Source: a virus
IMG/VR virus record: IMGVR_UViG_3300005573_000057
Location: 32,001-96,000 of that record
Length of the DNA: 64,000 bases
Strand: one strand, 5' to 3'
Shown here: positions 30,253 to 59,329 of the stretch, in pieces
Numbering within the stretch: the stretch's first letter is position 1
How the letters are laid out: the number at the start of each line of letters is the position of its first letter
Translations under genes and position numbers: made by a program
The notes under the pieces: generated by a model
Databases searched by the model: none
Seen by the model: the letters and a program-made list of their open reading frames with translations, nothing else
Told to the model about the DNA's origin: nothing

Positions 30253-30508
30253 TTGACATCCTCCCCTCCCTAAAGAAAGGGGATTCCTACGGCGTTTAGC
30301 ACAAAATATGCCAAATCGCTTCGGTGGGTTCCTGCTTCGCAGAACGGCCTTGATGCACCGATTCTCCACAGGCTAACCGGGCGTGTCCCGCCCTTAAAAC
30401 TTACAACTAGACCTTATTATACTTGCTCTATGATTCAAAAGCAACAACAGATTTGTCGTTTGTGTTATTGACCACGCTATGAATGGCGGGGTCTGTCGCC
30501 CAACGAAG
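30253..30508 (-). mobile_element. Non-autonomous TnpB-family mini-element encoding a stand-alone omegaRNA
   Basis: Both ends, the promoter and the 3' omegaRNA region align with 54883-56242; follows TTGAT; ends in GTCAA; no ORF. Confidence 0.88.
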
Positions 30509-32340: not shown

Positions 32341-32761
32341 ATTGCGTGTGGAACCTCGGCTTTTATGCCGAGTAGGTAGAGCGCAGATTGCTTCGCAATC
32401 TTTGCTTTGTGGCGTACCTAAATCACTCTCCATTTTTGCCACAGTTGAATAGGTGGAGGCTTTTCACCCCGCTGGGCCGTGAGGCTCTGCCCGTAAGGGC
32501 CTAGTGACGGAGACCTTACGGCCTCGCTCCCCTCGGGAATGTTTGTAACCGGCTCCACCCTTTCGGATGCGGCTAGAACCTTCGGGCCTTTACCTTTGCC
32601 CAGCATGATCCCAACCTTCCAGTGTCCGGGACTGAGGAAGCATCCCGGAGTGGGTCTCAACGACCTGTTACAAACGTAGCGGGTTTTCACCGCTTTCCCT
32701 GGTCAACCTAGCTATCGACCTTACGGTCTCAAGCTCCGGCCCGAAGGCCGGGGTAGTTGAC
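32337..32761 (-). mobile_element. Non-autonomous IscB-family mini-element (omegaRNA plus both ends, iscB deleted)
   Basis: 32500-32761 aligns with 52910-53173; 32337-32453 aligns with 51472-51583. Confidence 0.9.
32490..32761 (-). ncRNA. Stand-alone IscB omegaRNA (HEARO-like)
   Basis: Near-identical to the omegaRNA upstream of iscB, with stem-preserving differences (aaccgtaaggtt/gaccgtaaggtc; ccggctttcgggctgg/ccggccttcgggccgg). Confidence 0.85.
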
Positions 32762-40836: not shown

Positions 40837-41443
40837 TTAACATGCCGCCCTCCATAAAGGAGGATAATTCCTACTGTTCTGCGCACGAATCGCTTCAAGC
40901 GTAGTCACTTCGACGAGTTCATCAGTTCAAAGACGATAGATGATCTAGGGCAGCATCAAGCGTCGGGAAGACTCGTTCGCAGCACTGGCGAACCATTTCG
41001 AAGTAGCGCTTCACCGAGGGGTTCTCGACCTGATCAACCAAGAAGATTTGTTTACCCAAGGCTTTTGCAAATCCGATTTCCAACGCCAGCGCATAGCCGC
41101 CCGGATTCGAAGCCTCCATGTTGGCCAAAACAATGTCGGAATGGCGAACCGCCTCTAAGTCCCAACGTGTGTATTCGGCGGGGTCTTGAATGTTGTGTGT
41201 GCTCGGGTCAAGCAGCTCAAACGATCCGCCGAATCTGGCGGCAACTTGAGATTGCCAGTTGGATTTGAACCCACCGGCTAGGTACATCTTTTTAAGGGGT
41301 GTGGGGAGTTTTTTTAACATTGGTGTCCTTCTTAACTGTTTTCATTGCTTTATTATACTCGGTCTATGATTCAAAAGCAACAACAGATTTATCTTTTGCC
41401 CTATCCTTCCTTACCCCAAACTGCGGGGTCTGTAGCTCAATTG
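40837..41443 (-). mobile_element. Degenerate IS605 (TnpB-family) shell carrying a cargo gene
   Basis: 41347-41440 aligns with the tnpB left end and promoter (ctttattatact.ggtctatg.ttcaaaagcaacaacagattt); 40837-40920 aligns with the right end / omegaRNA tail. Confidence 0.78.
40922..41320 (-). CDS. Nucleoside 2-deoxyribosyltransferase-like protein
   Basis: YLAGG...W, DP, WDLEAV..SDIV, NPGG...LEIGFA.ALGK. Confidence 0.78.
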   Translation of the reverse strand: MLKKLPTPLKKMYLAGGFKSNWQSQVAARFGGSFELLDPSTHNIQDPAEYTRWDLEAVRHSDIVLANMEASNPGGYALALEIGFAKALGKQIFLVDQVENPSVKRYFEMVRQCCERVFPTLDAALDHLSSLN

Positions 41444-41450
41444 GTCAATG

Positions 41451-41951: not shown

Positions 41952-42454
41952 CAGTGGACAGTCCTCGATTCGAGCGAATCAACAGTCACTTGGCCTTTAT
42001 TTGCAGATTCCTTCAAAGATGTATGAAAATCTTCCACTGTTGAATATTGAACCACATTCAAAGGATTAACTTCATCGCTTTCCCCTTGTTCGACCGCACC
42101 AGATTCACGTTCATCGTTGACGGTTTTTGAAAACTCAGACACCGCCAAAGCAACCCACTTCATTGCGGCATGGGCCGATTCTTTGTCTACCTCAAGAACG
42201 CTTTCAATATCGCCCAAGATGTTGTTCGCAATTTGTGCGTATCGACTATACAAAACCATCGAATCAACTTGTGAACGACCCGCTGTAACTAGACCTGAGA
42301 TAAGCTCCAACGAGTAGACAAGTTTGGCTATTAGACCAGCCGCCTTACCGTACTTTCCCACAAGTTCCGAAAAAGCAATTCCAACTGCATTTTCGACTTT
42401 CACATCATTAGAACCATTACCATTGCCATTGCCATGCCCAGAAAGATCGCTCAT
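41951..42454 (-). CDS. Hypothetical protein
   Basis: AAGGAG ribosome-binding site; coupled to the hydrolase gene. Confidence 0.7.
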   Translation of the reverse strand: MSDLSGHGNGNGNGSNDVKVENAVGIAFSELVGKYGKAAGLIAKLVYSLELISGLVTAGRSQVDSMVLYSRYAQIANNILGDIESVLEVDKESAHAAMKWVALAVSEFSKTVNDERESGAVEQGESDEVNPLNVVQYSTVEDFHTSLKESANKGQVTVDSLESRTVH

Positions 42455-43042
42455 GATTTAACTCCTTGGTTATTTAACGAAACTCACTTTTGTCCTTCAC
42501 CAGAAGAACTCAAGTCTACAAAACTTATGGGATTTGTCTATGTCATTGCCCATAATGAAACTAAAAAATCATACATCGGCAAAAAAACTTTTTGGTCACA
42601 CAGAAAGCTCAAACCATCTGACAAACGCAGAACAACAGTCGAAAGCGATTGGAGAACTTACTGCGGGAGCAACAAGGAACTTCAAGCACTGTTCAAAAAG
42701 AATCCATCACACTTCACCCGCACAATCCTTTACTTATGCAATACCAAATATGGAATGTCCTATAACGAAGATCGGCTACTATATGCCTACAATGTCCTTG
42801 AAAACCCCGATCTTTTTTACAACGACAATATAGCAGGAAAATACTTCATTGGCAAGTTTGACCAGTGGTATCGCCCTGCTGGATACGGAGTCTTTCCAGA
42901 GCATCTTCAAACGCAATCGGTGTATAATCCGTATGTTCAACCGATACACACAAATATCGGGGGTCAACCGATCCATCAGGCAACAACACTCGACGCGAAT
43001 GCAAATGACCATGCACATTCCCTACACACCACGTTGCAATAG
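42434..43042 (+). CDS. GIY-YIG-type endonuclease
   Basis: GFVY.I......YIGKK.FW...ESDWRTYCGS, FTRTIL.LC, FYNDNI. Confidence 0.8.
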   Translation: MPRKIAHDLTPWLFNETHFCPSPEELKSTKLMGFVYVIAHNETKKSYIGKKTFWSHRKLKPSDKRRTTVESDWRTYCGSNKELQALFKKNPSHFTRTILYLCNTKYGMSYNEDRLLYAYNVLENPDLFYNDNIAGKYFIGKFDQWYRPAGYGVFPEHLQTQSVYNPYVQPIHTNIGGQPIHQATTLDANANDHAHSLHTTLQ

Positions 43043-44488: not shown

Positions 44489-45001
44489 ATTCCCCGAAAT
44501 CAAATAGTCCCCATAGACTTTAGCATTTCCGTAGACCCGAGCATTCCCAGAGACACGAGCATTCCGAAAAACATGAGCATTTTCGTAGACCCGAGCATGC
44601 CCATAGAGTTGAGCATTCCCACAAACACGAGAATTCCCATACACCAGAGCATTCTCGACAACCTGGGAGTTCTCGAAGATCCACGCATTACCATAGACCA
44701 TAGCCTTTCCAGAAACCCATGAATTTTCAAAGACCATACTATTCTGGAAGACTTGAGCATCCCCGAAGACCAAAGCATTCCCGAATACCTTAGCATCATC
44801 AAAGACCCGAGCATTTCCGAAAACTAGTGCAGTCCCGTAGACCCAGCAGTTTCCCTCTTGACTCAAATTCTGTTCGGATTCGAGATAGCCGCCTATGTTT
44901 CCTGCGCGAAAATCGCCAAAATCGCGCAAAGCGCGGATACGGTAAAGAGTGCGGCCAGAAAATTCGATAGATTCATTTTTCAACAGTTCATACTTGTTCA
45001 T
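44471..45001 (-). CDS. Hexapeptide-repeat protein, paralog 6
   Basis: MNKYELL head; EISS end; an IscB-family fragment abuts the start codon. Confidence 0.88.
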   Translation of the reverse strand: MNKYELLKNESIEFSGRTLYRIRALRDFGDFRAGNIGGYLESEQNLSQEGNCWVYGTALVFGNARVFDDAKVFGNALVFGDAQVFQNSMVFENSWVSGKAMVYGNAWIFENSQVVENALVYGNSRVCGNAQLYGHARVYENAHVFRNARVSGNARVYGNAKVYGDYLISGNREISS

Positions 45002-45146
45002 CGGTTTGCGCGTGAAACCTCGGCATTTATACCGAGTAGGTATAAAGCAGAACGAGAAGCGTTCTATGCTTTGTGGCGTACCCAAATCACTCTCCATTTT
45101 TGCCACAGTTAAAAGGTGGGGGATTTCGCCCCGCTGGGGCGAGGCG
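45002..45146 (-). mobile_element. 3' part of an IscB-family mini-element (omegaRNA lost)
   Basis: Aligns with 32337-32487, including the mini-element-specific junction ccccgctggg. Confidence 0.85.
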
Positions 45147-49988: not shown

Positions 49989-50046
49989 TGAACTATAGCA
50001 GAAAAATTTCCGATATGCTCACTTGTTAACAGACTTTTACATCTTT
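49989..50046 (-). repeat. Dispersed promoter-associated repeat, copy 2
   Basis: See 44010-44067. Confidence 0.75.
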
Positions 50047-50091
50047 CGCATCCTTCCCCGCCCCGAAAGGGGGGGTCTGTCTCTCAACTGA

Positions 50092-50568
50092 TCAAATCTG
50101 AGGGTAAACCAAGGAAAGATGCTCAAGAACAGCAGACCAATTTGGATAAAATTGTGATCCAAAATGAATGATTTTTCCAGGAAAATTGGAACAGTTCGCC
50201 TTGTGAATCCGATCATCGACAAGAAAATCTCGGTATGATCCAAGAATTCCCTTGTCTTGAGTCAGGATGATCTTTTTTTGAAGATCCGGCAAATACTCCT
50301 TAATCCAATCCACCTTTTCTGCATAGGAGTGCGGAACACTTGGCGGCGGTTTTGAAGCAACCCAAACATCAAACCCCATTTGTTGTATTTTTGCCACGGA
50401 AGCGATTGCATCCGGCATTGGCGGCATTTCCCTAAAAAAATTCGGATGATCCATGAACCATTCATCCGTGAAATCATCGTTACCGAGCTTGAATCCAAGA
50501 TTAACAGCATGCGACTCGAAATCAACCAGTACACCGTCCATATCAATAAAAATTTTTCGTTGTTTCAT
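50092..50568 (-). CDS. 5'(3')-deoxyribonucleotidase (HAD)
   Basis: DMDGVLVDF, FF..MPP, EK..WI, LVDDR. Confidence 0.9.
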   Translation of the reverse strand: MKQRKIFIDMDGVLVDFESHAVNLGFKLGNDDFTDEWFMDHPNFFREMPPMPDAIASVAKIQQMGFDVWVASKPPPSVPHSYAEKVDWIKEYLPDLQKKIILTQDKGILGSYRDFLVDDRIHKANCSNFPGKIIHFGSQFYPNWSAVLEHLSLVYPQI

Positions 50569-50826: not shown

Positions 50827-51471
50827 TCATTTCACTCCAGGTTGTTTAACGACTTTTGGCCGACCAGATACGGCCTTGAAAATTCCATCAATGATACGCC
50901 CAACTTGGTGTCTGCCGTTTGGTTCTACACGAACAACCTTGGTTGGATCTGTAGAATGTGGTTCGTAGAAAACATCTTGGGATGCAGAAAGAGTAGCAAG
51001 ATCATCAATGGTAGCAACTGGTGCCACGACTTCGGGAGTTGTAGGATTCAAAATCAGATCATCCCACCCATAAATCTTTGCCAACTCTTTATAGGGAATG
51101 TTAGGGTACAAAAGATCAAGCTTTTGATCCTTTACAGCAATCAAAATTTCACACTCGGGCTTCGTCAAGCCGGTCAAGAGTTCAATGAAAATAGACTCGC
51201 GCTGCACTGCGCGAACATCTGCGCGACAAAACACATAAAACCTGCGCAGTTCGTTGTTCAGATTCACAGCAGTCATTGCGTAAGGAGCCGGATCAAACTT
51301 GTAATTCTCTGGTGCCCCTTCTGGAAGTAGAAACTTTTGACCAGAACGAATTGCATGATTCAGAAGCAGCTTGAGCGCAGAAGATCCAGCAACATCATGA
51401 ACACGATCCGGGTTTTCATTGAGCCACACAATCAGTTCATAAATGCGTGTCGGAGGCGTATTTTGATTCAT
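50827..51471 (-). CDS. Conserved T4-like hypothetical protein
   Basis: FLLPEG.P..K, L..ELRRFYVF, RES.FI.LL.GL...E..IL.AVKDQKL; its start ATGAA is the IscB insertion site. Confidence 0.75.
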   Translation of the reverse strand: MNQNTPPTRIYELIVWLNENPDRVHDVAGSSALKLLLNHAIRSGQKFLLPEGAPENYKFDPAPYAMTAVNLNNELRRFYVFCRADVRAVQRESIFIELLTGLTKPECEILIAVKDQKLDLLYPNIPYKELAKIYGWDDLILNPTTPEVVAPVATIDDLATLSASQDVFYEPHSTDPTKVVRVEPNGRHQVGRIIDGIFKAVSGRPKVVKQPGVK

Positions 51472-52885
51472 CATTTTCGCGTGAAACCTCGGCATTATTG
51501 CCGAGTAGGTAGAGCGCAGAACGCTTCGCGTTCGTTGCTTTGTGGCGTACCTGTTCACTCTCCTTTTTTGCCACAGTTGAATAACCATAACCATCCGCAC
51601 GTTGTACCAAAGTACAGTGCTTGTAGGATATGCCTTGAACGACACCCGTTGCGGTTTGTATATTGAAGTATCCATTTGCACGAACCACTAAGCGCCCAGA
51701 ATGGATTCCAGATTTCTTACCAGTAGGAACACTGGCCTTAACCATATCACCCGTCTGGAAACCTTTGATACTCTTTTTCCTAGTTAGGTATCCACGCGGA
51801 AATCCGAATGCATTCAACTGTGTGCGCTGATAGCGTCCTCGACCTGTACACTTAATTGCCAGTGTCGGTCTTTGCCAGCCCGTAACGGAACTAACTCGAC
51901 CTACGCATACCGCATCAAGCGCGTGTGTTTTCGGAATACCGAGTTGCATACGATTGAATTTCGTCAAACCGCCTGAACCTGTTGTGACCGGAACGTTAAC
52001 AGCTTTGAGCGCATTGAACAACGCCCAACGGGTTGAATTAACCGCCGATGCGTCTTTAAGAGGTCGTTTTGCTTGAGCCAAAATACGATCAAGTCGTTTG
52101 GTATCGTTCGCCAAGAATACGCGAACATCCTGCGCACCTTTTTTCTGGTTGCATGATTGGCAAGCCAAGGCCAGATTCGAGACCCGATTGCTTCCGCCTT
52201 TAGATCGAGGATGGATGTGCTCAATCTGTAATGGCACATCTTTTGCACCGCAGTACGCGCAAACCCTGTTCCACTTGTTGAGCAGATATTCGCGCACTTC
52301 ATAACCGGCTAATGTGCCTTGTTGATACTCAACACCAGAAATTTCCACATTCTGCATTTTTTGCATATCAAACCGAACCAGTTCCTGAGCAATACCAGCA
52401 ACCGGCACCACACGTTGAAAACGATTGACCCATGCAACGGTTGTATCAACCCGGTGTTGTAGAGAAGGAGCTAACCAACCTTTAGGTTTTGTCCGATTGT
52501 CGAAACGGGCTGGCCTATACCGCAACTTGGAACGACGAAAACTTCGATGTTGCCTCCGTGCCGTTAAAGCCTCGCTAATCTGACGCCCGCGATGCAACAA
52601 TTCAAAAAGATTAAGCACATGGACACCAACACTAATTTCACCACTTTCCGCATCAATTTTCTCTGATTCTCTGACCACTGCAATACCTGTAAACTTACTA
52701 CCCGGATCAATTTTTACCTTGATCGGTTGTAATACACAACTGGAAACTTCACGATCAACAATGCGTATCGAAAACGGGATCAGCCGATGAACACGCGCAC
52801 GACCAGACGCGAGCAGTTTTTTTGCTCGTTTCTCGCTGCACGGCATCAGCGGTTTTCCTCGTTTGTCGATTACAAATACTGCCAT
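51437..52885 (-). CDS. iscB: RNA-guided endonuclease IscB
   Basis: PLMP domain, RuvC-I IDPGSK, Arg-rich bridge helix, RuvC-II ELVRFD, HNH CAYC..IEHI.PRSKGGSN..NL..AC..CN, RuvC-III HALDA; all catalytic residues intact. Confidence 0.96.
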   Translation of the reverse strand: MAVFVIDKRGKPLMPCSEKRAKKLLASGRARVHRLIPFSIRIVDREVSSCVLQPIKVKIDPGSKFTGIAVVRESEKIDAESGEISVGVHVLNLFELLHRGRQISEALTARRQHRSFRRSKLRYRPARFDNRTKPKGWLAPSLQHRVDTTVAWVNRFQRVVPVAGIAQELVRFDMQKMQNVEISGVEYQQGTLAGYEVREYLLNKWNRVCAYCGAKDVPLQIEHIHPRSKGGSNRVSNLALACQSCNQKKGAQDVRVFLANDTKRLDRILAQAKRPLKDASAVNSTRWALFNALKAVNVPVTTGSGGLTKFNRMQLGIPKTHALDAVCVGRVSSVTGWQRPTLAIKCTGRGRYQRTQLNAFGFPRGYLTRKKSIKGFQTGDMVKASVPTGKKSGIHSGRLVVRANGYFNIQTATGVVQGISYKHCTLVQRADGYGYSTVAKKESEQVRHKATNAKRSALYLLGNNAEVSRENDESKYASDTHL

Positions 52886-53173
52886 TTACTTCCTTAAATG
52901 CGCTTACGCGCCTAGTGACGGAGACCTTACGGCCTCGCTCCCCTCGGGAATGTCTGTAACCGGCTCCTGCCTTGCGGCAGCGACTAGAACCTTCGGGCCT
53001 TTACCTTTGCCCAGCATGATCCTAATCTTCCAGTGTCCGGGACTGAGGAAGCATCCCGGAGTGGGTCTCAACGACCTGTTACAAACGTAGCGGATTGGAT
53101 ACCGCTTTCCCTGGTCAACCAAGCTATCAACCTTACGGTTTCTAGCTCCAGCCCGAAAGCCGGGGTAATTGAC
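51472..53173 (-). mobile_element. IS200/IS605-superfamily IscB element (no tnpA)
   Basis: Follows TTCAT and ends TTGAC on the + strand; subterminal hairpins ctcggcattattgccgag and ccagcccgaaagccgg; removing it restores a TAATG rnh/next-gene junction. Confidence 0.9.
52890..53173 (-). ncRNA. IscB omegaRNA (HEARO-like)
   Basis: Structured non-coding region with GNRA/UUCG hairpins upstream of iscB; second copy at 32490-32761. Confidence 0.88.
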
Positions 53174-54882: not shown

Positions 54883-55030
54883 TTGACATCCTCCCCGGCT
54901 CAAAGGCGGGAGATTCCTACTGCGTTCAACACAAAACATGCTGACTCGCTTCGGCGGGTTCCTGCTTCACAGAACGGCCTTGCTGCACCGATTCTCCACA
55001 GGCTAACAAGCGGTATCCCCGCTCTAAAAT
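54883..55030 (-). ncRNA. TnpB omegaRNA scaffold (overlaps the tnpB 3' end; guide from the flank atgggcagtcctcaag)
   Basis: This region is retained in the ORF-less mini-element at 30253-30400; matches established TnpB architecture. Confidence 0.7.
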
Positions 55031-56143
55031 GTTAATCGCGCCGACCAAATCGGCGTTTTCCTTAAAACCACATTCTACACATGCAAACTTGGCTTGTGTT
55101 TGGCGGTTCTCTGCGGCAACATGACCGCAGTGCGGACACGTCTGGCTTGTGTAATGAGCCGGAACTGGAAGCAGAATGCCACCGTTCCAAGTCATTTTGT
55201 ATTCCAGTTGTCGCCTGAATTCGTCCCATCCCTGATCGAGAATGGCGCGATTCAGTCCAAACTTCTGAGCTACGTTTTTACCCGGTGCTTCGCTATTGCC
55301 TTTAGAAGACTTGGACATATTCCGTACCTGCAAATCTTCAATAACAATCATAGCGTGGTTTTTGCTGATTGTGGTTGAAGTCTTGTGCAGGAAATCTTTG
55401 CGGGCATTAGCGATAGTGCTGTGAATCTTCTGGACTTTAGCTTTCGCCTTTTTCCAGTTACTACTGAACTTAACCTTTCGAGACATGGCACGTTGGTACC
55501 GTGCTAGTCTTTGTTGATGTTTCTTGAAACTGTTAAGCGGTTTAATATAGCTACCATCGCTCAAGGTAGCAAACCGAGTAATGCCCATGTCGATTCCAAT
55601 GGCGCTAGTAGCTGTTGGAATAGGTTGTTCAACTTCGCGTTCAGTTTGAATACTCACAAACCACTTGTCACCGGCTTTGCTGATAGTGACATTGCGTACA
55701 TTGCCTAGCACATCACGACTGTTGCGGTAACGCAACCAACCAAGTTTAGGCAGGTAAATACGGTTGTTGCATTGTTCTAGTTTGATACTTTTCGGGTCTG
55801 GATAACGAAAACTGAGGTGTTGCCCTTTTTTCTTGAACTTTGGAAAATCCGCACGCTTGGCAAAGAAATTGGCATAGGCACGTTCCAAATTCTTGAGCGA
55901 TTGTTGCAACGGGTGAACAGGAGAATCTCTTAACCACGTAGTATCGGTGCTGTTGCGCCATTCTGTGAGCATCTTGCACAACCCCGCATAACCAAGCTTT
56001 TTCTCGCGTTGCTCGTAACGCTCTTTCTGCATCGCTAAAGCCTTGTTGAAAACAAACCGGCACGACCCGGCGAAGCTACGCATTTTGCGTTGCTGTTCGC
56101 CGTTTGGCATCAGTTCGTATTTGTAGGCTTGTAGACGTTTCAT
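54926..56143 (-). CDS. tnpB: RNA-guided endonuclease TnpB
   Basis: HTH N-terminus, RuvC GIDMG / IEDL / NADLVGAINI, Zn ribbon CPHCG..CVECG. Confidence 0.96.
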   Translation of the reverse strand: MKRLQAYKYELMPNGEQQRKMRSFAGSCRFVFNKALAMQKERYEQREKKLGYAGLCKMLTEWRNSTDTTWLRDSPVHPLQQSLKNLERAYANFFAKRADFPKFKKKGQHLSFRYPDPKSIKLEQCNNRIYLPKLGWLRYRNSRDVLGNVRNVTISKAGDKWFVSIQTEREVEQPIPTATSAIGIDMGITRFATLSDGSYIKPLNSFKKHQQRLARYQRAMSRKVKFSSNWKKAKAKVQKIHSTIANARKDFLHKTSTTISKNHAMIVIEDLQVRNMSKSSKGNSEAPGKNVAQKFGLNRAILDQGWDEFRRQLEYKMTWNGGILLPVPAHYTSQTCPHCGHVAAENRQTQAKFACVECGFKENADLVGAINILERGYRLLACGESVQQGRSVKQEPAEASQHVLC

Positions 56144-56263
56144 GGCTTTATTATACTAGGTCTATGGTTCAAAAGCAACAACAGATTTACTTTCGCGCTA
56201 TCATTCCCCGCCTTGAACGGCGGGGTTTGTCGCGCAACTAAAATCAAGAACAGATCGAACCCA

Positions 56264-59192: not shown

Positions 59193-59329
59193 GGTGAAAA
59201 TTTTAGAGAGTAATGTTATTCTTCGCCGTCCAGAAAAGCAACGTTTGCCGAGCAATCGTTAAAAATCTCATTTTGACACCTGTTCCAATATGTAGGCAGT
59301 GTATCCCAACGGAAATTGAAAAGCAAGAC

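Follow-up and report, generated by a model that had tools for sequence, protein, structure and literature searches.

What is a small gene for a deoxyribosyltransferase (NDT)-like enzyme doing between the two ends of an insertion sequence (IS) in a T4-like phage, and where did it come from? The locus in question is a 607-nt element (41443-40837) in a 64,000-nt window, i.e., bases 32001-96000 of the IMG/VR virus record IMGVR_UViG_3300005573_000057 (140,449 nt, 79% complete). The virus has gp43, gp44, gp45, PhoH and RegA-type genes, and its genome has a GC content of 43.5%. Coordinates given here are those of the window, and features lie on its minus strand unless stated otherwise. An original prediction, made from the nucleotide sequence alone, had described the element as an IS605 shell whose tnpB was replaced by an NDT-like cargo gene, and both the boundaries it gave and the position immediately upstream of gp44 proved to be exact. 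As set out below, we consider it very probable that the element is the shell of an IS200/IS605-family insertion sequence that holds a gene captured from a bacterial ssp (phosphorothioate defence) operon. What the gene does for the phage is a matter on which we are far more tentative.

The ends of the element were compared with those of an intact tnpB-only element in the same window (tnpB-1; 54883..56242), whose tnpB (54926-56143) encodes a 405-aa protein with all three TnpB Pfam domains, the RuvC motifs GIDMG, IEDL, and NAD, and a zinc ribbon. The left end (LE) of the NDT-bearing element (41340-41440) was 83% identical to that of tnpB-1 (56138-56237) over 101 nt (blastn, E 8e-24), and the motif TATAATAAAGCnATGAAA was found in the window at these two left ends only, with 0.12 occurrences expected by chance. 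Pairwise similarity of the right ends (RE) was weak (p about 0.01-0.001 by shuffling), and a profile was therefore built from the right ends of 57 TnpB elements on contigs of bacteria and other viruses, the window itself contributing none. When applied to the 64-kb window, the profile gave three matches only, namely tnpB-1, a 256-nt mini-element (30253..30508), and 40915-40837. The last of these (E 1.5e-7, 27 bits, as opposed to 62-68 bits for the other two copies) stopped exactly at the IS terminus, ...CATGTTAA at 40837. This right-end remnant (40837..40915) corresponds to the last ~78 nt of the tnpB 3′ end, omegaRNA and RE, finishes in ATGTTAA, and keeps a 5-bp hairpin at 40849-40863 upon folding. 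The left end, promoter, start context and right-end tail are thus those of the TnpB element, as had been predicted, with a flank similarity that is significant on alignment.

The same LE hairpin and RE accompany roughly 100 relatives of TnpB (60-76% aa identity) at bacterial and viral loci, the majority of them from Burkholderiales and other Proteobacteria. In the NDT-bearing element, tnpB and the omegaRNA scaffold have been lost except for ATGAAA and the last ~78 nt. Since tnpB and most of the omegaRNA are gone, the element is a shell and not a TnpB element; likewise, TnpB-guided homing cannot maintain the NDT-bearing copy, because most of the scaffold is missing. No match to the Y1 transposase TnpA (PF01797) was detected in the 140-kb record, which is 79% complete. 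This absence is expected of a tnpB-only or derivative element, and it concerns autonomy rather than ancestry. Judged by its sequence, then, the stretch 41443-40837 is by ancestry a non-autonomous (tnpB-only) derivative of the IS200/IS605 family with a decayed LE, and it is now probably immobile.

The LE begins with a subterminal hairpin region (41394..41443), followed by a predicted sigma70-type, tnpB promoter-like site, TTGCTT-N17-TATAAT (41352..41380). The promoter segment, from AAATCTGTTG to ATGAAA (41340-41393), was identical to tnpB-1 at 50 of 54 positions (93%), as compared to 35 of 52 (67%) in the hairpin segment (Fisher p 0.0013). When folded as DNA, the LE hairpin reached -4.6 kcal/mol (z -0.1) versus -14.4 kcal/mol (z -4.1) for the intact tnpB-1, and its score against the LE-hairpin family profile was 8.6 bits (E 0.08) versus 45.8 bits. 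These values bear out the original prediction in that the promoter has been conserved while the hairpins that serve transposition decayed. TTGCTT-N17-TATAAT occurred in the window at only three IS-derived left ends (0.03 expected), and the tnpB ATG lies 6 nt after TATAAT in the NDT-bearing element as it does in tnpB-1. We also considered, and rejected, the notion that the promoter segment is phage-specific, as a similar stretch (CATAGA..GAGTATGAT..ATG) precedes tnpB in some bacterial copies. As no T-rich terminator was read from the sequence after the NDT gene, transcription probably continues into gp44.

The promoter segment is repeated at four loci of the genome with 92-96% identity, a pattern that could suggest a different origin for the locus. 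According to this alternative, the ~55-nt repeat is a mobile regulatory cassette of the PeSL (promoter-early stem-loop) type, homologous recombination shuffled the gene in, and the IS ancestry is incidental. However, every copy of the repeat lies within IS-derived sequence. Downstream of the cargo there is an IS right end, which PeSL cassettes lack, and bacterial IS copies have the same promoter-like stretch ahead of tnpB. We consider a PeSL-type origin to be very unlikely.

Between the remnants of the IS lies a 422-bp fragment (40914..41335) that is 90.3% identical, without gaps, to bacterial DNA (L002-L005). It consists of 15 nt from the 3′ end of an upstream gene, the whole NDT-like open reading frame (ORF), and 8 nt past its stop codon. 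The 15-nt portion is the end of an overlapping 235-aa gene and includes the native Shine-Dalgarno sequence of the NDT gene, AAGAAGGA (41333-41326), located five bases upstream of the ATG. The NDT-fold gene itself (40922..41320; 132 aa) is intact and has a GC content of 51.4%, which falls in the 96th percentile of 400-bp windows of the genome; an intact, GC-richer gene in place of tnpB was what the original prediction had described. At the left junction, IS sequence continues through ATGAAA, the first two codons of tnpB (41345-41340), and bacterial sequence is recognizable from 41335. At the right junction, 40914 is the last bacterial position and 40915 the first of the RE profile match, so that tnpB is missing from codon 3 to ~80 nt before the right end. 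The mini-element is without ATGAAA, and the presence of these codons in the shell implies that it derives from a tnpB-bearing copy.

The positions of these junctions bear on a second alternative, namely that the ends are two separate IS remnants, or chance matches, that flank an independently acquired gene and do not form a single shell. Solo ends do exist in this phage (the LE hairpin of 50043-50099; 3′ ends of the IscB type at 44997-45113), and the weak pairwise similarity of the right ends would also fit. Against this, the foreign fragment starts ≤6 nt from tnpB codon 2 and stops at the very base before the RE match, no phage-type spacer is present on either side of it, and the unit spans exactly the distance from target site to IS terminus at a place where, in a relative phage, the hydrolase and gp44 genes abut. 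Two separate insertions are unparsimonious because a single 422-bp bacterial fragment abuts IS-internal positions on both sides. The single shell of the original prediction is hence retained, and we regard two independent remnants as extremely improbable.

The source of the fragment was apparent from its homologs. More than 300 close homologs of the NDT protein were found, with 89% aa identity to the protein P0002, and ~120 proteobacterial ones (70-89% identical) came from Comamonas, Bordetella, Herbaspirillum, Ralstonia, Cupriavidus, Xanthomonas, Lysobacter, and many metagenome contigs. The closest named relatives belong to the Burkholderiales and Xanthomonadales, and one bacterial contig (L003) originated from the same metagenome as a contig of the phage (L001/L219). 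In all six bacterial contexts sampled, a gene for a ~1800-aa FtsK-like protein (SspH) was followed by a 233-235-aa gene and then by the NDT gene, with sspD, sspC, and sspB adjoining. The donor-type operon thus reads sspF-sspG-sspH-[235 aa]-[132 aa], next to sspB/sspC/sspD; SspF, SspG, SspH, SspB, SspC, and SspD were identified with PADLOC profiles (E down to 0). In bacteria, the NDT gene closes a restriction operon and is translationally coupled to the gene before it, which encodes a membrane protein. Four hydrophobic segments were recognized in this 235-aa protein, which is without a family assignment; its family shares many bacterial genera and assemblies with the NDT family, and in two genomes the two genes have consecutive locus tags. 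In several Proteobacteria (L120:9322-10399, L002:4322-5399, L006, and L227-L230), two overlapping genes follow sspH, one of 233-235 aa and one encoding an NDT-fold protein of 130-134 aa.

Neither the 235-aa nor the 132-aa gene is represented in PADLOC or NCBIfam, and no description of them was found in the literature searched. The NDT protein belongs to no PHROG, PADLOC or NCBIfam family, gave no tblastn match in 50,697 phage records, and was not found in 400 sampled genomes of the class to which Janthinobacterium belongs; few species representatives carry the family. When SspH was searched for with PADLOC in these 400 genomes, the hits were mostly housekeeping FtsK, with one true SspH locus (L221). 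The phage record contains no homolog of sspF, sspG, sspH, the 235-aa gene or sspD, and its NDT copy is an orphan. Based on gene content and sequence similarity, the cargo originates from a bacterial defense island of the Ssp phosphorothioate type.

The direction of transfer could be read from base composition. The bacterial copy has a GC content of 58.9% and resides in a contig of 60.6% GC, as compared with 51.4% for the phage copy. Among the 38 differences, read from the bacterial to the phage sequence, 32 are G/C to A/T and two are the reverse; this bias represents amelioration toward phage composition and therefore shows that the transfer was from bacterium to phage. The synonymous divergence (dS) was 0.32 and dN/dS was 0.147, values that show that the gene has been in the phage for some time and has been under purifying selection since its transfer. 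All 53 residues that are invariant in the family are kept in the phage protein.

The surroundings of the element are consistent with an IS insertion. A Hydrolase_2 cell-wall hydrolase gene (41951-41451) ends with a TGA stop codon at 41453-41451, followed by a TTGAC target/cleavage-site pentanucleotide (41444..41448) directly 5′ of the LE. The element runs from this pentanucleotide to its terminus at 40837, and 21 nt with a ribosome-binding site separate it from the ATG of gp44 (40815-39856). TTGAC abuts the LE directly, and neither a target duplication nor inverted repeats accompany the insertion. TTGAT, the target of ISDra2, is present at the same distance from the hairpin in tnpB-1, the mini-element, and the LE remnant at 50043-50099 of this phage, and several bacterial copies have either TTGAT or TTGAC at the same place relative to the hairpin. 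In the nearest relative phage (L212-L215), the stop codon of the hydrolase gene overlaps the start codon of gp44 (ATGA) with nothing in between, which represents an empty site. The two phages share 65% aa identity in gp44 and the gene order SegE / 189-aa / Hydrolase_2 / gp44 / clamp-loader / RegA. The relative (L212) is too diverged to give the exact pre-insertion sequence. The phage was assembled from five samples, and the element is identical in them. Three assemblies agree at 100% identity over a 2.7-kb region, of which another includes 2.4 kb with a single mismatch; the fifth contains gp44 and the right part of the element only.

Two features of the wider neighborhood are recorded here. 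A gene for a SegE-type GIY-YIG homing endonuclease lies on the plus strand of the window (42434-43042), opposite to the early genes among which it is found, and the relative phage has it at the corresponding place. A few kb upstream of its hydrolase-gp44 junction, the relative phage possesses genes for a TET/JBP dioxygenase, a YAcAr protein, and a P-loop kinase (L212:1-1456), a set of the cytosine hypermodification type; the phage studied here has other genes in the corresponding region.

How the bacterial gene came to be inside the shell can be explained in more than one way. A working cargo transposon could have formed in a bacterium as a composite, been moved into the phage by TnpA acting in trans, and might still be mobile. 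The element has its two ends in the expected order and orientation and abuts TTGAC as other copies abut their targets, and trans mobilization is possible in principle, since in many bacterial relatives the LE lies about 500 nt upstream of tnpB and leaves room for tnpA. However, the composite is present as a single copy, and its LE-cargo junction was found only in the same phage among the viral and metagenome contigs scanned, a scope that also applies to the next two results. The LE/promoter variant was confined to this phage's own copies, which are the closest match to the LE of the shell, and the composite was not found a second time. The stability of the LE hairpin is at background level, its profile score is low, and the record is without a Y1 transposase. 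Taken as a whole, these observations make a mobile cargo transposon improbable. Since the LE/promoter variant is known only from the four IS copies of this phage and a second composite was not seen, capture of the gene into a phage-resident copy appears at least as likely as its delivery by transposition. The original prediction had also envisaged a passenger delivered by the IS and then domesticated; delivery by the IS was not borne out.

We therefore favor, as stated at the outset, an IS shell with a captured ssp-operon gene, and the following history may be proposed for it. An IS lineage would have entered the phage and multiplied with the help of host TnpA, and one copy would have landed at the TTGAC of the hydrolase/gp44 junction. 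While the phage was infecting a host with Ssp, this resident copy would have exchanged tnpB and most of its omegaRNA region, via illegitimate, short-homology recombination, for 422 bp of host ssp DNA. The donor was presumably a GC-rich proteobacterium, and the fragment would have brought along the complete last gene of the ssp operon together with its ribosome-binding site. The ends of the element would have decayed afterwards, with the promoter and the gene retained. At present, the NDT gene is very probably transcribed from the sigma70-type tnpB promoter and would be translated from the captured Shine-Dalgarno sequence to give a presumably active NDT-fold enzyme of the N-glycosidase type.

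Several observations weigh against this account or parts of it. The empty site was seen in a single and rather distant relative (65% aa identity in gp44). The -35 hexamer of the presumed promoter matches the consensus at three of six positions, and a consensus promoter scan did not list the site because this hexamer is weak. The residual tnpB start, ATGAAA (41345-41340), opens an out-of-frame, 17-codon ORF (41292..41345) that overlaps the start of the NDT gene and could lower its translation. At the junctions, TGAAA on the left and a GGA-C-CGCC-AA-like stretch on the right, the latter common to the bacterial 3′ flank and the tnpB 3′ end, are short likenesses that are uncertain because the true donor is about 10% diverged; they are at most a hint of a microhomology-mediated replacement. 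The GC content of the phage (43.5%) is far from that of the donor (about 60%), so the donor need not be a current host. The true SspH locus at L221 is without the 235-aa/NDT pair, which is therefore an optional add-on, and the published three-gene SspFGH module works in E. coli without the pair (PMC8092258).

The possible function of the cargo was approached through its predicted structure. Matches to the Pfam families PF15891 and PF05014 were marginal, the two scores of 31.6 bits (cut-off 30) and 30.9 bits (cut-off 28.8) being slightly higher than required. The AlphaFold2 model of the protein had a pLDDT of 86.2 and a pTM of 0.82, and a fold search with it returned 60 PDB chains at E≤0.001; nearly all of the top matches listed were NDT-superfamily or NDT-like uncharacterized proteins. 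The top folds (Foldseek probability 1.0, TM 0.64-0.74) were NDT, YtoQ, the CMP N-glycosidases BcmB and MilB, and DNPH1, and the best sequence match among solved structures was also a CMP N-glycosidase. The stretch LALE(V/I)GFAKALGK aligns with the catalytic-Glu motif ...E-(I/L/V)-G-(Y/W/F)-A..., and its E81, which is invariant in the family alignment, aligns through the family profile with the motif Glu of BcmB, Desulfotalea NDT, and Leishmania PDT, a residue that we take to be the nucleophile. Because of the NDT fold and an invariant E81 on the catalytic-Glu motif, the modeled protein looks like an active N-glycosidase or transferase that acts on a nucleoside or nucleotide.

An enzyme of this kind might have a metabolic role, and nucleotide-pool metabolism is the main rival to an interference with Ssp. 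In this alternative, the structure and history of the locus are the same, and the gene serves the nucleotide metabolism of the phage, for instance by hydrolyzing a particular NMP or dNMP and so shaping or cleaning its pool of precursors as do MilB, BcmB, and DNPH1, with no relation to Ssp. The fold with its conserved catalytic Glu and the CMP N-glycosidase as best solved match are in keeping with such a role, as are the position of the gene among replication genes (gp44, its clamp-loader partner, RegA), a 5′-nucleotidase gene nearby in this phage, and the occurrence of distant family members as stand-alone genes in other phages. On the other hand, the copy is derived from a defense island and not from a metabolic operon, and phage members of the family reside beside SspD-like, Mom, and methylase genes, not beside genes of nucleotide synthesis. 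We consider a purely metabolic role somewhat unlikely. Distant phage relatives with 30-43% identity were observed directly before SspD-like genes of the PAPS-reductase fold (L205, L206, L207, L208, and L210), in five NDT-like/SspD-like loci altogether (PADLOC SspD, E 1e-15 to 2e-4), two of which have the same gene order. Other phage NDT-like genes (also L203 and L209) are adjacent to a Mom homolog or to Dam-like or C5 methylase genes. Judging from these neighbors, the phage NDT-like neighborhoods appear to be those of DNA modification or anti-restriction.

An interference of the phage copy with the Ssp-linked module of the host is the reading that we prefer, at something short of an even chance. 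Without its membrane partner, the enzyme might interfere with the SspFGH-linked branch of defense either by removing a nucleotide ligand or substrate or by occupying the site of the partner. More speculative still is the complete proposal, in which the phage would use the captured terminal enzyme of a five-gene SspFGH module, uncoupled from its membrane partner, as a counter-defense against phosphorothioate immunity, and in which OMEGA shells would act as capture cassettes. A counter-defense role of the phage NDT gene is an inference.

The genome contains further IS-derived sequences besides the elements used for comparison. The mini-element comprises an LE, the TTGCTT-N17-TATAAT promoter, the last ~128 nt of tnpB/omegaRNA, and an RE; it lies before a P-loop kinase-like gene and could give rise to a promoter-driven, protein-less omegaRNA. 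A second tnpB copy with 81% DNA identity is located at 102375-103672 of the genome, 6.4-7.7 kb past the end of the window, and its LE is cut just upstream of the promoter, beside an apparent 3′ end of a tRNA gene (T-arm, acceptor stem, CCA). The solo LE hairpin remnants at 50043-50099 and 59216-59265 matched the LE profile with E-values of 2.4e-4 and 2.5e-3, respectively; the former precedes a 133-aa ORF and a gene with a PAAR motif, next to gp43. The LE profile also matched the 3′ ends of IscB-type elements on the opposite strand. An intact IscB (RRXRR and HNH, 482 aa) and its HEARO omegaRNA (Rfam, 98 bits) are located at 51437-53173, and a solo 3′ end of an IscB element (44997-45113) precedes a YdcK beta-solenoid gene. 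A second full HEARO (107 bits; 32521-32761) precedes an RNA-ligase gene and was examined as a potential second shell with cargo. This candidate was rejected, as the HEARO is part of an internally deleted IscB element (HEARO and iscB 3′ end, 32761-32331) with the ligase gene outside of it. The sequence MAKMESDLGTPQS, common to the starts of two ORFs, was likewise rejected as coding sequence, since it is the end of an IscB element.

These results present a cleanly resolved IS200/IS605 shell in which a host gene has taken the place of the gene for an RNA-guided nuclease, with junctions within a few bases, a donor, and a direction of transfer. The novelty lies in the cargo, which is a gene lifted from a defense operon with its donor context resolved, and the locus illustrates one way for lytic phages to gain host genes together with a promoter. 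The cargo also draws attention to a conserved and undescribed pair of genes with which many sspFGH operons end, one for a four-segment membrane protein and the other for an NDT-fold enzyme. The phage keeps the enzyme alone and under purifying selection, and it therefore offers a direct and cheap test of the role of the pair and of counter-measures to Ssp. We know of no phage-encoded Ssp inhibitor. If the counter-defense role is true, the phage protein would be the first anti-Ssp factor derived from the Ssp system's own operon, and emptied OMEGA (TnpB/IscB) shells would be ready-made promoter cassettes for capturing and expressing host genes. The pairing of NDT-like with SspD-like genes in phages suggests a wider link between the NDT-like family and conflicts over the DNA backbone or DNA modification. 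Together, these observations provide a testable lead into unrecognized components of phosphorothioate-based defense and the counter-measures of phages.

The locus can be compared with several known systems. With tnpB-only (IS1341-type) IS200/IS605 elements it shares a subterminal hairpin region at the RE, and a decayed remnant of one at the LE, without terminal inverted repeats, insertion directly 3′ of a TTGAT-like pentanucleotide (here TTGAC), an RE that overlaps the tnpB 3′ end and omegaRNA, and a dependence on Y1 TnpA in trans. ISDra2 is the studied example of the IS200/IS605 family, and gene-less derivatives, PATEs, are known. Unlike tnpB-only elements and PATEs, the element described here has a foreign protein gene in place of tnpB and most of the omegaRNA, a decayed LE, and a single copy. 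In the literature searched, it is unusual for tnpB to be replaced by a protein-coding passenger, and a search for passenger genes of IS200/IS605 elements returned nothing relevant.

With regard to SspABCD-SspFGH, the closest homologs of the cargo (up to 89% aa and 90% nt identity) are the last genes of sspF/G/H operons located by sspB/C/D. The published SspFGH module consists of three genes (Wang et al., 2021; PMC8092258). The 235-aa and 132-aa genes are not described in that report (PMC8092258), and the phage carries the 132-aa gene alone. As a member of the NDT superfamily (NDT/PDT, BcmB, MilB, DNPH1, YtoQ), the protein has a Rossmann-like fold with the N-terminal strand motif YLAGGF and the stretch LE(V/I)GFAKALGK in line with the catalytic-Glu motif; it differs in having 17-24% identity to any solved member and in the replacement of the Asp of D-x-G-T, which reads N-P-G-G in the cargo. 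The viral ring nuclease AcrIII-1 is related to the host Crn2 and represents a viral copy of a host immune enzyme that serves as counter-defense. The cargo resembles AcrIII-1 in being a stand-alone homolog, predicted to be catalytically intact, of a small enzyme from a defense locus, whereas its cellular role and any anti-defense activity are putative. Finally, PeSL cassettes of T4-type phages, reportedly described by Arbiol and co-workers in 2010, likewise place a short, repeated promoter segment before accessory genes in a T4-like genome; unlike in those cassettes, the repeat found here belongs to an insertion sequence, whose left end it forms, and has an IS right end as its partner.

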